Shown here one piece after another: positions 17,929 to 23,521 of a stretch of 32,000 nucleotides of DNA; the stretch's first letter is position 1; each line of letters starts with the position of its first letter. This stretch comes from Candidatus Pacearchaeota archaeon (lineage in GTDB: Archaea > Nanobdellota > Nanobdellia > Pacearchaeales > UBA284): contig CP061211.1 of the NCBI GenBank assembly GCA_026016245.1, positions 120,001 to 152,000 on the forward strand. The letters run 5' to 3'. The notes under the pieces were generated by a model. It ran no database searches, was not told where the DNA came from, and was given only the letters and a program-made list of their open reading frames with translations. Made by a program: the position numbers and the translations under genes.

Positions 17929-17955
17929 GGTTCTGTAAAGTTATCGGTTGGTAGA
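17929..17955 (+). repeat. left terminal inverted repeat (IS6-type GGTTCTGT terminus)
   Basis: GGTTCTGTAAAGTTATCGGTTGGTAGA matches the reverse complement of 23374-23400 at 23/27 positions. Confidence 0.65.
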
Positions 17956-17988
17956 AAAGGTTAAAAGGTTAAACTTTCTTTAATTCTT

Positions 17989-18177
17989 ATGGCTACATTA
18001 AGCACAAGGAAATTAAATATAGCAAGACATAGGCAGGGTTGGTTTGCACACCAAGAAAGTGAAGAGAGAAAAAGAAGGTTAGAGGAACAGAAAAATAGAA
18101 AACCAGTAAGCAAAGAAGAACATAAAAGAAGGGTAGAAATGCTAAAGAAAATTGGGTTGTTAAAAGAAAATGAGTAA
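17989..18177 (+). CDS. small basic hypothetical protein
   Basis: 62 aa, rich in R/K/E. 8-nt overlap with the next ORF. BRE/TATA-like aaaaggttaaaagg ~29 nt upstream. Confidence 0.35.
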   Translation: MATLSTRKLNIARHRQGWFAHQESEERKRRLEEQKNRKPVSKEEHKRRVEMLKKIGLLKENE

Positions 18178-18805
18178 AGCCAAAGCGAAATTAAAGGGTA
18201 ATACTATAATTTTACAATTACATTATTCTCAAGGTGGAACAAGAATTGCAGATAAAGAGGGAAATCATCTTCCAAAGCCAACACAGGTAATAAATGATAA
18301 AAGATATTACATTGAATGGATGATAACTAATGATGAGATTAAGTTACTATCAAAACTTTTTAAGAAGGAAGAGGACATTACTGGTTTGATAAATTTATTA
18401 CAAAAAATAAGTAAATTTGCAGAAGAAACAAAATACTCTAAGAGAACAACATCTTTTGAGAAAAAAGAAATAGATAAATTTGAAGGTTTTAAGATATATC
18501 ATTATACTGATGATTTTAATTCTTTTGAAAAGATTCTTGATTCTGATTTAAGAGTAAGATTAACCTTTAAATTAGGAGATTTTGGTGTTACGGCTCATCC
18601 TCATATGTATGTTTTAATTCCTTTTAATTTCAAATCATTAAAGATAAAAAACATAGAAGGCAAAGTTAATGAAAATAAGCCATTAGGAAAAGGTTGTTTT
18701 GGGGAATTAAATTTAAATGAAGAAGAACTCAAAGAAATAATCTTAACTCTTGCTCACGCTTCAAATAATCACAGAAATGCTTTAATTGAAATTCTTAAAT
18801 CTTAA
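18170..18805 (+). CDS. hypothetical protein (possible partner of the adjacent methyltransferase)
   Basis: 211-aa ORF, convergent with the MTase gene and overlapping it by 11 nt. No nuclease motif confidently seen. Confidence 0.4.
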   Translation: MSKAKAKLKGNTIILQLHYSQGGTRIADKEGNHLPKPTQVINDKRYYIEWMITNDEIKLLSKLFKKEEDITGLINLLQKISKFAEETKYSKRTTSFEKKEIDKFEGFKIYHYTDDFNSFEKILDSDLRVRLTFKLGDFGVTAHPHMYVLIPFNFKSLKIKNIEGKVNENKPLGKGCFGELNLNEEELKEIILTLAHASNNHRNALIEILKS

Positions 18806-19943
18806 TTTTAAAATCTAAAATATCAGATTTTTTTATTGATTTACTGCCAACTCTAATTGTAGAATTTTTAAAATGCTCTTGATTTTCATTTATCAATTTA
18901 CATATTCTTTCCTTTAACTTTTTGTCTTTGTTACATTCTTCTTTAAATTCAAAGACAAAAAACATATCATTCAAAATATCTTCTTCTTTATTGATTAATC
19001 CTGTTTTCCCTACACTTACATTCCCAACTCTCACAACAGCAAGGTAATAATCAGAAACATTTTTGTCTTGTGGTATCTCTTGTCTTTCTAATATATTCGC
19101 CCCAGAAACATTATTGTTTTCATAACTCCTGTTATATTTCACTCTCCTCTCAGATAAGAATTTTGAAAGGGGTATGCCTTCTTGTTTGTTGTTTTTCTTG
19201 TATAAAAAAGATTGAGGTATTAATTCTTCTGTTGATAGTTCTTGTTTGTTTAATATCTCTTTTACACTTTTATCATCTTCGTATAATAATATTATTTTAT
19301 CTTTGTATTCTAGAATGTTTGTGAAAATAGCAAAACAGCAGGGGATTGGTTCATCAAACCAATTTTTATCATTTTGATAAATAATAATTGTAGAAAAATT
19401 ATTTATAATTTCTTTCTTAATTTCTTTGTTCTTTTTTGCTATAAAAAAAGAAATAGGTAAAACGAAAGCGATAGAAGAATTTTTGTCCTTAAAATGTTTT
19501 ATAGATTTAAGAATAAATACATTTTCCATTTGAATTTTTGGTTTTTTAATAAGAACATTTGTTAAATACTCTTCTGGCTTAATCTCCTTATTTTTATAAT
19601 TATCTGAATAATAATAACTATTTTTAACATTATATTTAGTAAAGGGTGGATTTCCAATAATTAAATCAAATTTTTCTTTTAGAGGAAAAAGAAAGAAATC
19701 ACAAGGGTTATTAGTTAAATCTGTGTCTATTTCACAATCCACTATATTTTTAAAATCCCTATCTTTAAGCCCTCTTACAAAATTTTTAGTGCCTGAAGAT
19801 GGCTCTAAAATTCTTATATTTTTATCATACTTTTTATATTCTAATAACAAATTTAAGACTCTCTTTACAATATTCCTTCTTGTGAAATATTGCCCCCAAA
19901 CAAATTTCTTCTCTTTTTCCATATTGGGATTACGCTTTGCCAT
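18795..19943 (-). CDS. N6-adenine DNA methyltransferase (gamma-class, TaqI/Eco57I-like)
   Basis: Order of motifs: GQYFTRRNIV (X-like), ILEPSSGTKNF (motif I), IIGNPPFTKY (motif IV NPPF), followed by a ~250-aa putative target-recognition region. Confidence 0.85.
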   Translation of the reverse strand: MAKRNPNMEKEKKFVWGQYFTRRNIVKRVLNLLLEYKKYDKNIRILEPSSGTKNFVRGLKDRDFKNIVDCEIDTDLTNNPCDFFLFPLKEKFDLIIGNPPFTKYNVKNSYYYSDNYKNKEIKPEEYLTNVLIKKPKIQMENVFILKSIKHFKDKNSSIAFVLPISFFIAKKNKEIKKEIINNFSTIIIYQNDKNWFDEPIPCCFAIFTNILEYKDKIILLYEDDKSVKEILNKQELSTEELIPQSFLYKKNNKQEGIPLSKFLSERRVKYNRSYENNNVSGANILERQEIPQDKNVSDYYLAVVRVGNVSVGKTGLINKEEDILNDMFFVFEFKEECNKDKKLKERICKLINENQEHFKNSTIRVGSKSIKKSDILDFKIKI

Positions 19944-19946
19944 TTT

Positions 19947-20849
19947 TTAATTCTTTTGACTTGCACAATATATCAAATCAAGCCATTTATTTTTACCAAG
20001 ATTTAGATTAACCCCAGCTTCTTCAATAGGGGTTTTATTAATGCCCTGATGAACACGAATAAAATTATAATAAACCACAAATAAAGATAATATTGCTTCT
20101 GCACTTTTCTTATCCTTAAAATTTCTCATAACTTTTATTCTTTGCCTAATTGTTCCTTGTATTCTCTCAACAATATTATTTCGTTTATCCTTATCTGCTT
20201 TTAATTTAATCCAAATTTTTTTGTCCTCTTTTCTATTTCTTGAACCCCAAACTTTCCTAAATGCTTTATTATATGAAGGTAGAGAATCTGTAAATAGATT
20301 AATAGGCTTGTTTTCTGTTTTTAAGAAAAGTATTTTTGCAGATTGATAATCTCTTTTTTCTGAATAATGAGAAGAAACCAAAACTCTTGTTCCTTTATCA
20401 ATCATATCCCAAAAATAATGCTGTTCTTTTTTACATTTAACAAAAATCTCGTCAGCATGATATTGTCCTGAAAGTTTTAAATCAAACTTTCTCTGAAAGT
20501 CTTTTAACAAGATAGCATATCTTCTTATCCAATTTAGAACAGATTGATGACTTACCCCATAATCTGAAAATTGATTAAAATGTTCTTTGATTTTTCTTAA
20601 ACTTAATCCATTCATATAAAGAGAAATACATTGAGTTACAACTTCTTTTTTATGTTTCATCTTGAAAAATCCATCATCAAGAGTAAATGTTTCAGAACAA
20701 GATTTACATTTCCATCTCTGTTTTTTTGTTGTATGATTAAATCTAAATCCCCATTTAATTAAAGTTTTAGATTTACAGAAGGGACATGCCTTCGGCTTTA
20801 TAACCGATACATTTTTATATTTCTTTGATTTATTGTTTTTGTATTTCAT
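19947..20849 (-). CDS. IS6-family-like DDE transposase with N-terminal zinc ribbon
   Basis: CPFCKS..(x19)..CKSCSETF zinc ribbon. HADEIFVKCKK..YFWDMID (cf. IS6 DETYIKIKG..YLYRAID), TDSLPSYNKAF, NNIVERIQGTIRQRIK (cf. IS6 NNxIExxHxxIKxR). ATG at 20849 is preferred over the GTG at 20864. Confidence 0.85.
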   Translation of the reverse strand: MKYKNNKSKKYKNVSVIKPKACPFCKSKTLIKWGFRFNHTTKKQRWKCKSCSETFTLDDGFFKMKHKKEVVTQCISLYMNGLSLRKIKEHFNQFSDYGVSHQSVLNWIRRYAILLKDFQRKFDLKLSGQYHADEIFVKCKKEQHYFWDMIDKGTRVLVSSHYSEKRDYQSAKILFLKTENKPINLFTDSLPSYNKAFRKVWGSRNRKEDKKIWIKLKADKDKRNNIVERIQGTIRQRIKVMRNFKDKKSAEAILSLFVVYYNFIRVHQGINKTPIEEAGVNLNLGKNKWLDLIYCASQKN

Positions 20850-20862
20850 TAGCGTGGGATAC

Positions 20863-20880
20863 ACAGCCCTTCGGGGCTGT
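20863..20880. other. GC-rich perfect hairpin ACAGCCC-UUCG-GGGCUGU
   Basis: 7-bp stem with a 4-nt loop, followed on the + strand by TTTTTATTT. Lies 13 nt upstream of the transposase ATG on the - strand. Confidence 0.7.
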
Positions 20881-20931
20881 TTTTATTTAATTATCTATTA
20901 TTAGTTATTAACTAATTATATTAGGATATAC

Positions 20932-21162
20932 CTATTTATAAATCTTTCGGTTCAAACTGGCTAAAGAAAAAATCGTCAGAAATAGGTGTCTTTTTAGAAT
21001 TAAATCTGATTCTTGCTTTAACCTTCTATCTAAAAATCTATTAAGTTTTTGAGAATAATCTTTAATATTTATGCCATGCTTTTTGTCAAATTCTTCTTTT
21101 AATAAAATTGCCTTTTCTCTTGTTTCCATAACTTTTAAATCGTGCTGATTCCAAAGATTCAT
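20932..21162 (-). CDS. hypothetical 76-aa protein, downstream partner of the AbrB-type gene (candidate toxin/effector)
   Basis: ATG overlaps the TGA of the upstream AbrB-like ORF (ATGA). GGAG ~10 nt upstream. No toxin family recognised. Confidence 0.4.
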   Translation of the reverse strand: MNLWNQHDLKVMETREKAILLKEEFDKKHGINIKDYSQKLNRFLDRRLKQESDLILKRHLFLTIFSLASLNRKIYK

Positions 21163-21338
21163 TTTTTCCTTTTCTCCTTTTTATTTTGTTGCCCAATTTT
21201 TTCTATAAACAGAATTTCTTCACCCTTGCTTTTTCCAACATAAACCTTATCTCCATTTTCCCACCCAGTCGCTTCTATTACGTCTTTAGGAATGGTTATT
21301 GTTGCTTGTCCATTTTTGTTTATAGTTAATCTTCCCAT
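21159..21338 (-). CDS. AbrB/MazE/SpoVT-type DNA-binding protein (59 aa; below the ORF-track cutoff)
   Basis: My translation: MGRLTINKNGQATITIPKDVIEATGWENGDKVYVGKSKGEEILFIEKIGQQNKKEKRKK. The ..ATITIPKDVIEATGWENGDKV.V.. segment is the classic swapped-hairpin AbrB pattern. Confidence 0.7.
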   Translation of the reverse strand: MGRLTINKNGQATITIPKDVIEATGWENGDKVYVGKSKGEEILFIEKIGQQNKKEKRKK

Positions 21339-21367
21339 AACGTTATATTAACGTTAAATTAACGTTA
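21338..21367. promoter_or_regulatory. three phased TAACGTTA palindromes (candidate operator array)
   Basis: TAACGTTA at 21338-45, 21349-56 and 21360-67, with exact 11-bp spacing. The first abuts the AbrB-like start codon. The third overlaps a TATA-like TTTATAA on the - strand. Confidence 0.55.
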
Positions 21368-21400
21368 TAAACCTTTCTATTCTCAAATTTTTCCAAAAGG

Positions 21401-21408
21401 TTTAAATA
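21401..21408 (+). promoter_or_regulatory. TATA box candidate for the wHTH gene (leaderless spacing)
   Basis: aaaggTTTAAATAgc centred ~27 nt upstream of the ATG at 21431. Confidence 0.4.
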
Positions 21409-21430
21409 GCCATTTGCTAATTATATTAGT

Positions 21431-21709
21431 ATGGCTAAAGCAATTCCAAAATGGGTGATGGAAAGGTTATCACGACTTTGGAAAAAGTATGGCGATAGTC
21501 AAGCAATAACTTTCAAACAAATAAAGGATGTTTTAAAGATGGATGACGAAAACACAATAAGGGTATTCATAAATGAATTGAAAAAAGCAGATTGGATAGA
21601 AGTTCAATTAAGCCCAGAAAGTTCAAGAGAAAGAATCTATATTCTGAAAGAACCAAATAAAATTATGATGGAGATTGTTTCAAATGGAAATAAAAGAAGT
21701 AAAGGTTGA
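21431..21709 (+). CDS. small winged-helix DNA-binding protein (putative)
   Basis: 92 aa. ITFKQIKDVLKMDDENTIRVFINELKKADWIEVQ...RERIYIL resembles a wHTH (helix-turn-helix plus wing). Confidence 0.45.
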   Translation: MAKAIPKWVMERLSRLWKKYGDSQAITFKQIKDVLKMDDENTIRVFINELKKADWIEVQLSPESSRERIYILKEPNKIMMEIVSNGNKRSKG

Positions 21710-22796
21710 ACTTGTTGATAAAAATTCAAGATTTGTCCTTAAAAAGATAATAACTAATAAAGGGGAATTTTATAATAGGCAACTTGCAGTATCAAATTCT
21801 ATTTATGCTTGTGAGAAAAAAAGATTAATTTATGGAAAAGCTTTATTTGATTCTATTTTTCAAACTTTTCATATAATGTGGAATAGTGATGAAGAAGAAT
21901 GGGATTTTATAGGATTAAAAAAAGCAAAAGAACACTCAAAAAATAATGGAAGAATTTTTATCCCATACAAACAAAGAAATGAAAAGCAGTGGAATGAATT
22001 AACTTGGAAAGAAGCCGAAGAAGAATTTAAGAAATTTCAGAAAAAAGTAAATATTGTTCCTTATCCAATTCCTTTAAATGCTTCTTTAGAAGAATGGAGA
22101 ATAAAGAAAAAGGAAGCATTAGGATTATTAGAACCAAATCAAAAACTAATTTCTATACTTTCATCTAAACATCATAATATTAATAATTTCCTTTTATTAG
22201 TAAAAGAAGAATTAAAAAATTCATTTTTTCTTGGAATTTGTTGTTATGGATTAAGCACAACTTTAGAGAAAATAAATTTATCTTTACTTAATTCAATAAA
22301 TTCCTCTTTTAATGTAGAAGATAAAACTGCTTTAATAGGTTATTTTGATTATGCGAGGATGTTAATGAACCATTCAAATATCGCTGGTTCTTTCGCTTAT
22401 TCTTGTTTTGCTGGAGATTTCTTTTCAGAAAAATCTTATTTTATTCCGAGAATGTCTAAAAAAGCAAGAGAAAAAATGTTTAATAAAAAACCAGAGGATT
22501 TTTATTTTTATGATATAAAAGAAAAAAAATTCAATAAATCCCTTCCACAATCAGGATGGTATGGTTTTGATTTAACAAGAAATTCTCTAAAAATGATTTC
22601 TGTAAATGAAGGTTTAACTGGCTATCAAACAATAAAATGGATTAATCATTTTTTACAGCAGAGAGATTTAAAATTAATTAATGAACTTCTTATTTCTAAA
22701 AAGAATGTTCTTAAATCATTAAAAAATTATACTGGTTGGAATGTTTTTTGGGATACAATAAAACCAAACTCCCCTGAAATTCAAAGAACTTTATAG
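21675..22796 (+). CDS. hypothetical 373-aa protein
   Basis: Long ORF overlapping the end of the wHTH gene (alternative start at 21684). No catalytic motif recognised. Confidence 0.5.
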   Translation: MFQMEIKEVKVELVDKNSRFVLKKIITNKGEFYNRQLAVSNSIYACEKKRLIYGKALFDSIFQTFHIMWNSDEEEWDFIGLKKAKEHSKNNGRIFIPYKQRNEKQWNELTWKEAEEEFKKFQKKVNIVPYPIPLNASLEEWRIKKKEALGLLEPNQKLISILSSKHHNINNFLLLVKEELKNSFFLGICCYGLSTTLEKINLSLLNSINSSFNVEDKTALIGYFDYARMLMNHSNIAGSFAYSCFAGDFFSEKSYFIPRMSKKAREKMFNKKPEDFYFYDIKEKKFNKSLPQSGWYGFDLTRNSLKMISVNEGLTGYQTIKWINHFLQQRDLKLINELLISKKNVLKSLKNYTGWNVFWDTIKPNSPEIQRTL

Positions 22797-22820
22797 TCAC
22801 GTGACGCAAAGGATAAAACA

Positions 22821-22862
22821 TTAAGGGGTTGCTTGTTCTTTCCAAGCAAGTTAATCCCTTAA
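22821..22862. terminator. two-segment hairpin between convergent genes
   Basis: TTAAGGG(22821-27)/CCCTTAA(22856-62) and TTGCTTG(22829-35)/CAAGCAA(22843-49), with loop ttctttc. Confidence 0.4.
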
Positions 22863-22970
22863 CGCCTTCTTTAAATTATTAATTCTTTCTACCTTTTAAT
22901 CTTTTCTATGATTTTGGCTTTGTATATAAAGTCTGAATAAGGGCTTACTTTTTAAACAAAATTTATTTTA

Positions 22971-23315
22971 TTATTTCAAGGTTAACATTTGTGCCATTAT
23001 GACAAAATTAACTTTAAAAGATAATTCTGGAAAATCTTCTTTGATTTTATTCCATATCCACATTTCTTCTTCAAAATAAGGTATAAAATTTCCTTTATCT
23101 TTCTCTTTAAATGATTCTACTTGGTCTATTCCAAAAATTTTGTGATAAGCTTCATGTATTACAATAACTTCAATTGATTCTAAAGGATTATCCCTTCCAA
23201 CCCATATTTCTTCTGGTTGAAGTGAAGCCCCTTCACCATCAACAATTTTTACAGGAAATTCAAAATTGTATTTCTCTTTAAGTTTTTTCTTAGCAGATTC
23301 TATTTCTTTTTTCAT
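22971..23315 (-). CDS. small HExxH protein (putative minimal Zn-metallopeptidase-like)
   Basis: 114 aa with VIVIHEAYHKIFG. No other motif recognised. Confidence 0.4.
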   Translation of the reverse strand: MKKEIESAKKKLKEKYNFEFPVKIVDGEGASLQPEEIWVGRDNPLESIEVIVIHEAYHKIFGIDQVESFKEKDKGNFIPYFEEEMWIWNKIKEDFPELSFKVNFVIMAQMLTLK

Positions 23316-23373
23316 AACAAATAAAATATTCTCTCTACATATAAATTTTTTGATTTAAATTATATAATTAAAA

Positions 23374-23400
23374 TCCACCAACCTAAGACTTTACAGAACC
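23374..23400 (-). repeat. right terminal inverted repeat (IS6-type GGTTCTGT terminus)
   Basis: The reverse complement reads GGTTCTGTAAAGTCTTAGGTTGGTGGA. Ends 10 nt from the tRNA-Gly 3' end. Confidence 0.65.
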
Positions 23401-23410
23401 AATAAAAACA

Positions 23411-23521
23411 TGCGCCAGCTGGGATTTGAACCCAGGTAACAACCTATCTCCAAAGTTTAGGGTTGATAAGGGATATGCCCTTATTTGGGAGGGTTGTGTC
23501 TTACCACTGGACTACTGGCGC
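23411..23521 (-). tRNA. tRNA-Gly(CCC) with 40-nt intron at the canonical 37/38 position
   Basis: Manual fold: acceptor GCGCCAG/CUGGCGC, discriminator A, D arm GUCC-AGUGGUA-AGAC, anticodon stem CAACC/GGUUG, loop CU-CCC-A[intron]A, T arm CUGGG-UUCAAAU-CCCAG. The intron contains UUUGGAG, complementary to the anticodon region (BHB-like). No encoded CCA. Confidence 0.8.

Follow-up and report, generated by a model that had tools for sequence, protein, structure and literature searches.

A putative self-repressed AbrB-type control cassette in a unit transposon of a Pacearchaeota archaeon

Regulators of the AbrB type that repress their own genes through a palindromic operator are already known. In temperate-phage immunity modules, a repressor gene moves between otherwise similar elements as a unit with its cognate operator repeats, and the same is seen in the cassettes described here. 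The omega repressor of the omega-epsilon-zeta operon is a small repressor that acts on an array of short phased repeats, and the second gene of that operon encodes a small helical protein. In Tn3-family transposons, toxin-antitoxin pairs are integral to the transposition module, with toxins of the ParE, PIN, Gp49 and HEPN kinds, and a stabilising role has been proposed for them (PMC7157771). Members of the insertion sequence (IS) family IS6 are single-gene elements of 0.7–0.9 kb with 8-bp target repeats, and one passenger-carrying member is known (PMC7986276). The locus described here is found in a 32,000-nucleotide stretch of contig CP061211.1 (positions 120,001 to 152,000), hereafter the window, from a Candidatus Pacearchaeota archaeon. 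The window carries a unit transposon of this Pacearchaeota (DPANN) genome, in the core of which a small AbrB-type gene overlaps a second small gene encoding a 76-amino-acid (76-aa) orphan protein, directly downstream of three phased palindromes.

The reading favoured overall, held with about even confidence, is that the gene pair and the triple operator form the control cassette, repressed by its own product, of a previously undescribed 5.5-kb transposon found in DPANN archaea.

The AbrB-type gene, its operator and their exchange between loci

The elements of the cassette are as follows.

21159 to 21338, minus strand: AbrB/MazE/SpoVT-type protein of 59 aa, subtype “AbrB-A”, the predicted repressor of promoter P1
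20932 to 21162, minus strand: conserved orphan gene of 76 aa, its ATG overlapping the AbrB TGA (ATGA)
21338 to 21367, minus strand: P1 operator, three TAACGTTA palindromes (21338–45, 21349–56 and 21360–67) at 11-bp spacing, from the TATA box to the start codon
21365 to 21377, minus strand: P1 core promoter, a GAAAGG resembling the transcription factor B (TFB) recognition element (BRE), followed by the TATA box TTTATAA

Both genes had been proposed in an original prediction made from the sequence of this stretch. The small AbrB-type open reading frame (ORF), which translates as MGRLTINKNGQATITIPKDVIEATGWENGDKVYV... (N-terminus MGRLTINKNGQATITIPK), was recovered at the same position and with the same translation, as was the 76-aa ORF, the start codon of which overlaps the AbrB stop codon, the ATGA junction lying within ..AAAAATGAATC... 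The surroundings contain an archaeal-type gene set, including MCM and Nre. The AbrB-type assignment was likewise upheld by profile searches, in which the 59-aa protein matched Pfam MazE_antitoxin (PF04014; E=8.9e-5, 22.8 bits against a curated cut-off of 24.7) and TIGR01439 (AbrB; E=5e-6, 26.1 bits against 28.3). These matches appear significant, though slightly below the curated thresholds. PF04014 matches are precomputed for several close homologues, and the proteins of a second subtype (AbrB-B) that replace AbrB-A elsewhere exceed the PF04014 threshold with 25.6–38.4 bits. The 28 homologues of the 59-aa protein, of 51–59 aa, all come from DPANN-type metagenomes or metagenome-assembled genomes. 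The ratio of non-synonymous to synonymous substitution rates (dN/dS) is 0.04–0.19 for the AbrB gene and 0.15–0.26 for the 76-aa gene, values that place both genes under purifying selection.

The window contains exactly three copies of the palindrome TAACGTTA (at 21338, 21349 and 21360), against a chance expectation of 0.11, and none of 100 shuffled sequences reached three copies; the predicted triple array, at an exact 11-bp spacing and touching the AbrB ATG, was thus reproduced. All three AACGTT sites of the window (1.77 expected) lie within these boxes. Numbered in the direction of transcription, box 1 overlaps the TATA-like TTTATAA (21365–21371), as had been proposed, and the last base of box 3 is the A of the AbrB ATG. 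The purine-rich GAAAGG at 21372–21377 precedes the TATA box, the centre of which lies about 30 nt ahead of the ATG. The distance from TATA box to start site in archaea is usually about 26–27 nt, so a leader of about 3–4 nt is predicted, and the data support a predicted P1 mRNA that is bicistronic, coupled and near-leaderless. The BRE/TATA consensus GAAAGGTTTA(T/A)A is invariant across AbrB-A loci and recurs at two further promoters, P2 and P3; the conserved core has three archaeal BRE/TATA promoters.

The evidence that connects the 59-aa protein with the array is comparative. Related loci comprised contigs carrying homologues and a further 23 loci from a metagenome scan with the family of a 370-aa protein of the core, annotated with hidden Markov models and an ORF script. 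About 24 of them have a common four-gene core, in which genes for a protein of about 370 aa with a putative tRNA-guanine transglycosylase (TGT) fold and a winged-helix-like protein of about 90 aa are divergent from those for a small DNA-binding protein and a protein of about 75 aa, with the transposase gene next. The small DNA-binding proteins fall into four classes, one of them ribbon-helix-helix (RHH)-like. The classes were assigned by reading translations, and automatic labels would place L005, L014 and L031 under RHH-like, which leaves the counts of AbrB-A against the rest unaffected.

AbrB-A, 10 distinct loci: window, L011, L012, L017, L024, L029, L030, L036, L039, L040
AbrB-B, 7 distinct loci: L005, L009, L010, L014, L031, L034, L035
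AbrB-C, 2 distinct loci: L019, L038
RHH-like, 2 distinct loci: L001, L028

Among the RHH-like proteins, only that of L028 matched RHH_1, and weakly (E=0.018); that of L001 is read as RHH-like from its strand-helix-helix pattern.

With at most one mismatch, a spacing of 11 or 22 bp and a constant position between TATA box and ATG, boxes of the TAACGTTA type are found in 10/10 AbrB-A loci, and boxes at these spacings in 0/11 loci of the AbrB-B, AbrB-C and RHH-like classes. Among AbrB-A loci, boxes 1 and 3 and the BRE/TATA are near invariant while the middle box drifts. The synonymous divergence (dS) of the adjacent AbrB gene is 0.85–2.1, with synonymous sites near saturation, and since boxes 1 and 3 have been kept over that distance, the boxes are under tighter constraint than silent sites. 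Loci of the other classes carry repeats of their own between TATA box and ATG.

L009, L010, L035: GTAGGTATTA...TAATACCTAC
L005: ATATATTAA...TTAATATAT
L019, L038: ATGTATTTAC...GTAAATACAT
L001: two GTAGCAYACTT copies 21 nt apart

When the window is aligned with L001, the non-homologous segment is 21168–21385, with one end about 14 nt ahead of the TATA box and the other some 6 nt short of the start codon of the 76-aa gene. The segment swapped is precisely the promoter, the operator and the DNA-binding ORF. Because each class carries its own repeats and this swap spans exactly those parts, repressor and operator travel as a single cassette. The ATGA overlap is retained in 19/20 distinct cassettes that have an upstream DNA-binding ORF. 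Covariation and cassette exchange together are the strongest non-experimental evidence available for the 59-aa protein as a repressor of its own promoter that binds the TAACGTTA array. Autorepression of a leaderless transcript through these palindromes, as originally predicted, thus gains comparative support: the array is present at every AbrB-A locus and replaced wherever the DNA-binding gene is replaced. Taken as a whole, the comparative data argue strongly for an AbrB gene that is autorepressed via the array.

The 76-aa partner and control of the transposase

Two further promoters bracket the cassette, one of them serving a gene for a second candidate regulator.

21401 to 21429, plus strand: P2, TATA box TTTAAATA (21401–08) and palindrome CTAATTATATTAG (21417–29), ending 1 base before the 92-aa ATG
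21431 to 21709, plus strand: 92-aa protein with weak winged-helix matches, divergent from the AbrB gene
20900 to 20948, minus strand: P3, promoter-operator for the transposase, with BRE/TATA GAAAG ATTTATAAATA (20933–20948), palindrome CTAATATAATTAG (20912–20924) and ATTAG-N7-CTAAT (20900–20916)

The divergent intergenic region between P1 and P2 measures 92 bp. The BRE/TATA of P3, GAAAGGTTTA(T)AAATA, is encoded by the last codons and the stop of the ~75-aa gene (..NRKVYK*). Its TATA box and the ATTAG-N7-CTAAT repeat follow the ~75-aa gene in 8/8 loci examined, before all three transposase families, and also in L013. P3 is part of the core and not of the transposase module, because it is kept whichever transposase family comes next. 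The 13-mer CTAATTATATTAG occurs exactly twice in the window, at P3 (20912–20924) and at P2 (21417–21429), against a chance expectation of 0.05. Both copies lie 8 nt past a TATA box and together they bracket the AbrB–76-aa cassette. An identical 13-mer at both promoters implies a constant regulator that would act at these palindromes. The conventional candidate for this binder is the 92-aa protein. Its matches to HTH_27 and HTH_34 are weak (E about 0.03–0.05), and a homologue is found in 19/20 distinct related loci that keep a small DNA-binding gene; only L012, a contig of 531 bp, has none. As an alternative, the 76-aa protein may be the binder. No T-run was seen between the 76-aa stop and the transposase ATG, so read-through from P1 into the transposase gene is possible.

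The 76-aa protein is identical to IB618_00845 from a metagenome-assembled genome of a Candidatus Pacearchaeota archaeon and has 15 close homologues of 73–76 aa; 14 members of this set of 16 have 75–76 aa and the remaining two 73–74 aa. An exhaustive profile search of 1.84 billion representative proteins gave 30 matches, 29 of them to proteins of 57–90 aa. The thirtieth, to a repetitive 2552-aa protein with 18 matched stretches, is taken as spurious. Identity within the ~75-aa family ranges from 26 to 83%. The 76-aa protein is basic, with an isoelectric point (pI) of 9.9 (family median 9.4), and its AlphaFold2 model is a two-helix hairpin (helices 3–29 and 36–75) with a predicted local distance difference test (pLDDT) score of 83. 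No relation was found in Pfam, NCBIfam, PADLOC, PHROGs or PDB sequences, and Foldseek returned no meaningful PDB neighbour of the model. These empty searches agree with the earlier statement that the protein resembles no toxin family. The suggested co-occurrence was also borne out, as ~75-aa homologues do adjoin AbrB-type genes of the AbrB-A, AbrB-B and AbrB-C classes. That the ORF is a gene truncated by an IS element was ruled out by the near-uniform length of its homologues (73–76 aa) and by the conserved P3 BRE/TATA encoded in its C-terminal codons. A likeness to ORF80/PlrA of pRN1 was considered and dropped, as Stf76, a homologue of PlrA, is reported to be a winged-helix protein (PMC4027180). 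Within the 3′ part of the gene (20963–20972, minus strand, codons TIFSL), about 30 nt before the stop, a T6CT3 run resembles an archaeal oligo-T terminator, and the T-rich run is conserved in relatives. The poorly conserved, low-pLDDT C-terminus of the protein may have been shaped by such overlapping DNA signals.

A mechanism can be proposed in which P1 would drive the AbrB and 76-aa genes, the divergent P2 the 92-aa and 370-aa genes, and P3 the transposase and cargo. AbrB dimers would bind the three TAACGTTA palindromes on the same side of the double helix, successive boxes being one helical turn apart. With box 1 lying across the TATA box and box 3 across the start site and ATG, their occupancy would exclude the TATA-binding protein (TBP), TFB and RNA polymerase. 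AbrB would in this way shut off its own near-leaderless bicistronic mRNA, a negative feedback that would set the level of the 76-aa protein. The exchangeable cassette would behave as an immunity or specificity module recombined between element variants, with the flanking 75-aa gene and P2 unchanged. The 76-aa protein may in turn modulate the constant regulator or P3, thereby controlling the transposase; as a partner or antagonist of the constant P2/P3 regulator, or by binding DNA there itself, it could couple the AbrB switch to transposase expression. Small, basic and lacking a catalytic fold, the hairpin is tentatively taken to be, most likely, a regulatory accessory of the element and not a toxin.

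Several points weigh against this proposal. The putative accessory role is assigned to a 76-aa protein that has no recognisable DNA-binding motif and no known relative. The 59-aa protein stays below the curated Pfam and TIGRFAM cut-offs. The start sites, the leaderless status and the repression are all read from sequence geometry, and the window copy of the transposon lacks a clean target duplication, with 6/8 flanking bases matching. The layout, moreover, also fits a toxin-antitoxin module, since an autoregulated DNA-binding gene overlaps a second small gene and AbrB and RHH partners are swapped.

In such a type II toxin-antitoxin module, a new helical toxin would be paired with AbrB, which would be autorepressor and antitoxin in one, and the transposon or the host replicon would gain stability from the module. 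The layout that had suggested an antitoxin-toxin pair from the outset is indeed canonical: two small co-oriented genes with an ATGA overlap, the promoter-proximal one encoding a DNA-binding protein with a palindromic operator array. Moreover, the upstream partner alternates between AbrB and RHH-like proteins, the two commonest antitoxin DNA-binding folds, close AbrB homologues are auto-annotated in some sources as PrlF-type antitoxins, weak PDB matches are to “addiction module antidote” chains, and pairs embedded in a transposition module have a precedent (PMC7157771). The identity of the pair as toxin and antitoxin is, however, not borne out. In Pfam, NCBIfam, PADLOC and PHROGs the 76-aa family has no match among toxins, it resembles no solved fold, and the protein is modelled as a plain two-helix hairpin. 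Its DNA-binding partners, of 48–62 aa, reach barely beyond the domain, and their tails are short, Lys-rich and mutually non-homologous, with no common neutralising tail. Partners are also swapped without regard to the 75-aa protein, as identities to the window are uncoupled (81% for AbrB and 29% for the 75-aa protein in L036; 17% for the unrelated RHH-like partner and 83% for the 75-aa protein in L001); unrelated partners thus stand before nearly identical 75-aa genes, and the converse is seen too. In L013 an intact 73-aa gene is retained behind a truncated AbrB remnant. Finally, both proteins of the pair are basic. A toxin-antitoxin module is, on balance, considered rather unlikely.

Somewhat less probable still is that the 76-aa protein is a second sequence-specific repressor, dimeric and helical, which would bind P3 (and P2 in this lineage) and repress the transposase directly, with AbrB setting its level. 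The constant ATTAG-N7-CTAAT follows the constant 75-aa gene at every locus regardless of the transposase, the 13-mer palindrome flanks the cassette on both sides, and the family is basic (median pI 9.4), all of which would suit a DNA-binding role. The 92-aa protein is nevertheless equally constant, weakly winged-helix and the more conventional candidate, the 75-aa family (26–83% identity) is far more divergent than the P3 repeat, and the model shows no known DNA-binding motif. The notion that the TAACGTTA array serves something other than AbrB, whether as a site of the 92-aa regulator, a centromere-like or partition site, or a restriction-modification target (AACGTT), is very improbable: the array does lie in the divergent region common with the 92-aa gene, AACGTT occurs nowhere else in the window and the element carries a methyltransferase, but the array tracks AbrB-A perfectly (10/10 vs 0/11) while the 92-aa protein is present and similar in all classes, cargo methyltransferases differ among AbrB-A loci, three AACGTT against 1.77 expected show no depletion elsewhere, and no partition ATPase is present.

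The transposon, its other genes and its cargo

The remaining features of the element are the following.

17929 to 17952, plus strand: terminal inverted repeat GGTTCTGTAAAGTTATCGGTTGGT
23377 to 23400, minus strand: second terminal inverted repeat GGTTCTGTAAAGTCTTAGGTTGGT, 23/24 identical to the first
19947 to 20849, minus strand: IS6/IS240-type DDE transposase of 300 aa with an N-terminal zinc ribbon
21684 to 22796, plus strand: 370-aa core protein with a predicted TGT-like TIM-barrel fold
18795 to 19943, minus strand: cargo, gamma-class N6-adenine DNA methyltransferase, starting 4 bp past the transposase stop
18170 to 18805, plus strand: cargo, convergent 211-aa ORF, a possible restriction enzyme
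20863 to 20880: GC-rich hairpin ACAGCCC-TTCG-GGGCTGT between P3 and the transposase ATG, in the minus-strand 5′ untranslated region (UTR)
22796 to 22864, plus strand: palindrome GTCACGTGAC (22796–22805, at the 370-aa stop codon) and a hairpin of about 46 nt (22819–22864)
22971 to 23315, minus strand: 114-aa ORF between the core and the inverted repeat

The unit transposon extends from 17929 to 23400 (5,472 bp) between 24-bp terminal inverted repeats and contains the transposase and eight other ORFs. The terminal repeat has two matches in the window, in inverted orientation, where none is expected by chance, and the transposon coincides with a low-GC island (26–28% GC against about 32% for the genome). 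Flanking alignments of related loci place a common sequence of 24–28 bp, inverted, at both block ends. The same repeat pair is found in L005 to L008, L021 and L030, and also in L014. Perfect 9-bp target duplications are present in relatives with these repeats (L005, CTATACTCC; L030, CTATGGGTT; L014, ACGGGACAG), and these distinct duplications certify three insertion sites. Repeats flanking the transposase gene alone were sought in the window and none was convincing, the true repeats lying 2–2.5 kb further out on each side. The second inverted repeat ends 10 bp from the 3′ end of a tRNA gene (23411–23521, minus strand; 111 nt, an intron-sized length; Rfam 54.4 bits) that was missed by ARAGORN.

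The transposase, the start of which was chosen by comparison with 300-aa relatives, matches DDE_Tnp_IS240 (PF13610) with 69.5 bits (cut-off 27) and NCBIfam transpos_IS6 with 117.9 bits, below the cut-off of 125; an IS1/IS1595 zinc domain is also matched. The core occurs amid differing flanking genes and cargo, and is also paired with a 396–412-aa SWIM/IS240/IS66-like transposase or with an IS4/5-type DDE_Tnp_1 transposase. A sister element with the SWIM-type transposase (412 aa) lies at L017 (3995–9514). It has its own 24-bp inverted repeats (GGGAGTGTTAGG...), a perfect 9-bp target duplication (TCTAATTCC) and the common core, in which AbrB-A is accompanied by three perfect TAACGTTA boxes. In L019, the IS4/5-type variant, the search for whole-unit inverted repeats gave only a 10-nt tip match flanking the transposase gene. 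L014 and L019, which have different transposase families and come from different genomes, both have thymidylate synthase/DHFR/thioredoxin genes on one side and rpoH-rpoB on the other. Their common location suggests that the site is preferred, or else that an old insertion later exchanged modules. In L013 (1400–1830), the intact 73-aa homologue stands behind a 15-codon AbrB-A remnant (..GEESIFIEKIKEVKK*) with the ATGA overlap retained. That contig ends in a tyrosine-integrase gene, and its complete P3 is placed to drive an unrelated 57-aa ORF; part of the core has been captured by another element. A viral origin was rejected, as relatives of the 370-aa protein number zero in IMG/VR, INPHARED phages and PLSDB plasmids.

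The 370-aa family comprises 38 homologues, none with a Pfam match in the region common with the window protein. Its model is confident (pLDDT 91.7; predicted template modelling score, pTM, 0.91), and the top 50 PDB matches of the fold search are all tRNA-guanine transglycosylases (probability 1.0, template modelling (TM) scores 0.36–0.55); BFVD matches are generic TIM barrels. The TGT family of Pfam (PF01702) was not matched by family members even at E≤10, no PDB sequence matched, and neither a C-terminal Cys cluster nor a CxCxxC...H zinc motif is visible in the sequence. From the modelled fold, the protein may be a DpdA-like base-exchange or glycosylase enzyme. A restriction enzyme was considered and rejected: the only hint is a chimera, P0054, and the fold search favours a TGT-like barrel. 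In P0054 (289 aa, from an ENA contig of 958 bp), an N-terminus like that of the TaqI restriction enzyme (PF09573) is joined to the last ~150 residues typical of the 370-aa family.

Two conserved hairpins are found beside these genes, neither of them matching an Rfam family. Read on the plus strand, that at 20863–20880 has a cUUCGg loop and is followed by the T-run TTTTATTT, an arrangement that resembles an intrinsic terminator antisense to the transposase. Its stem shows compensatory changes in L001 (GAACCC/GGGTTC), L005 (CTGCCC/GGGCAG), L009 and L010, which hints at a 5′-UTR regulator or an antisense RNA. The hairpin at 22819–22864 has 23 predicted pairs, five of them with compensatory changes across 10 loci, and might act as a terminator or stabiliser or be a site specific to the element. 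The 114-aa ORF beyond it had no family match in Pfam, NCBIfam or the other profile libraries searched.

The cargo methyltransferase matches N6_Mtase and Eco57I and, in another search, a type II methyltransferase (E=3.5e-22), and the pair it forms with the 211-aa ORF is also present in L014 to L016. Across the loci, the cargo consists for the most part of DNA methyltransferases. Those placed after the transposase are of the gamma-class N6-adenine type in the window, L014 and L030, Dam-like in L009 (3132–4175), of the N4/N6 type in L010 (7218–8513) and, as judged from an FxGxG motif read in the sequence, of the C5 type in L024. In L017 (7088–9166), an EcoRI-type methyltransferase and a GmrSD/HNH protein are placed after the TGT-fold gene instead. 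These enzymes belong to unrelated classes and are often accompanied by a putative nuclease; their genes start at most a few bases from the stop codon of the gene ahead or overlap that gene. The elements act as carriers of restriction-modification systems.

A more far-reaching and decidedly speculative proposal joins all parts of the core into a new kind of transposon control switch, made of two parts, a TGT-fold enzyme together with a winged-helix-like protein and an exchangeable repressor-operator cassette together with a ~75-aa helical protein. The cassettes would be interchangeable immunity modules, the 75-aa protein either an anti-repressor gating the transposase or the founder of a new class of helical toxin, the TIM-barrel protein a DpdA-like enzyme of base exchange or glycosylase type acting on nucleic acid, and the whole a mobile platform for DNA modification or anti-restriction that takes up various transposases along with restriction-modification cargo.

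Comparison with known systems

DPANN mobile elements are almost uncharacterised, and the IS6 family is regarded as simple and essentially passenger-free (PMC7986276). Here, one regulatory core is combined with at least three DDE transposases and many kinds of methyltransferase, which would make the elements a plausible vehicle for the spread of restriction-modification systems among ultra-small archaea. The cassettes offer a natural archaeal example of joint repressor-operator swapping, with ready cognate pairs (AbrB-A with three TAACGTTA boxes, and three further classes) for the study of promoter occlusion. Two orphan families are also brought forward, the ~75-aa hairpin and the TGT-fold protein. 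A note of caution follows for annotation, in that layouts resembling toxin-antitoxin modules can be transposon control cassettes.

Like the AbrB/MazE/SpoVT autorepressors (MazE, PrlF, AbrB-type VapB and the AbrB N-domain), the 59-aa protein has, by sequence, a small domain of the putative swapped-hairpin type, is encoded first in a two-gene operon and has palindromes over its own promoter. Unlike them, the AbrB-type proteins here have only 48–59 aa and no recognisable toxin-binding tail, and the operator consists of three phased 8-bp palindromes. Since the host belongs to the DPANN archaea, the promoter is of the BRE/TATA type and the mRNA is predicted to be near-leaderless, and the downstream gene is not MazF, PIN, YhaV or Doc.

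The pair shares with the pairs of Tn3-family transposons (PMC7157771) a two-gene cassette with an autoregulating DNA-binding first gene, located beside the transposition gene within the inverted repeats, and may be co-regulated with it. It differs from them in that the second gene encodes an orphan helical hairpin of putative toxicity, the transposase is of the IS6/IS240 type or another DDE type, and the host is archaeal. In comparison with temperate-phage immunity modules and the omega-epsilon-zeta operon, the elements lack both lysogeny functions and a zeta-type toxin, have a transposase gene in third place and are archaeal.

As in the IS6 family (IS26/IS257; PMC7986276), the transposase is of the DDE_Tnp_IS240 kind with helix-turn-helix (HTH) and DDE domains and, in some members, a zinc finger, and the elements have short inverted repeats starting with GG and a short target duplication. 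The DNA elements of DPANN archaea differ in their length of 4–5.5 kb, in their four-gene core and cargo, and in the 9-bp duplications of the relatives. The window transposase, furthermore, scores below the NCBIfam IS6 cut-off, and the core is also found with other transposases and inverted repeats. The element ends (GGTTCTG...) are presumably similar to those of IS257.

The 370-aa protein resembles TGT and DpdA enzymes (PMC10164549, PMC6884629) in its modelled TIM barrel with an N-terminal three-stranded sheet and, as with DpdA, in its location on a mobile element among restriction-modification genes. It departs from them in TM scores of only 0.36–0.55, in the absence of a TGT Pfam match and of a visible zinc site, and in having no preQ0 synthesis genes or DpdB nearby.

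Measured against the literature, profile libraries, and phage and plasmid records searched, four aspects of the locus appear new. The first is the archaeal BRE/TATA, near-leaderless setting with three phased palindromes. The second is the modular exchange of repressor and operator, and the third the orphan ~75-aa partner family. The fourth is the position of the cassette within the conserved core of a DPANN unit-transposon family that swaps transposases and carries restriction-modification cargo.

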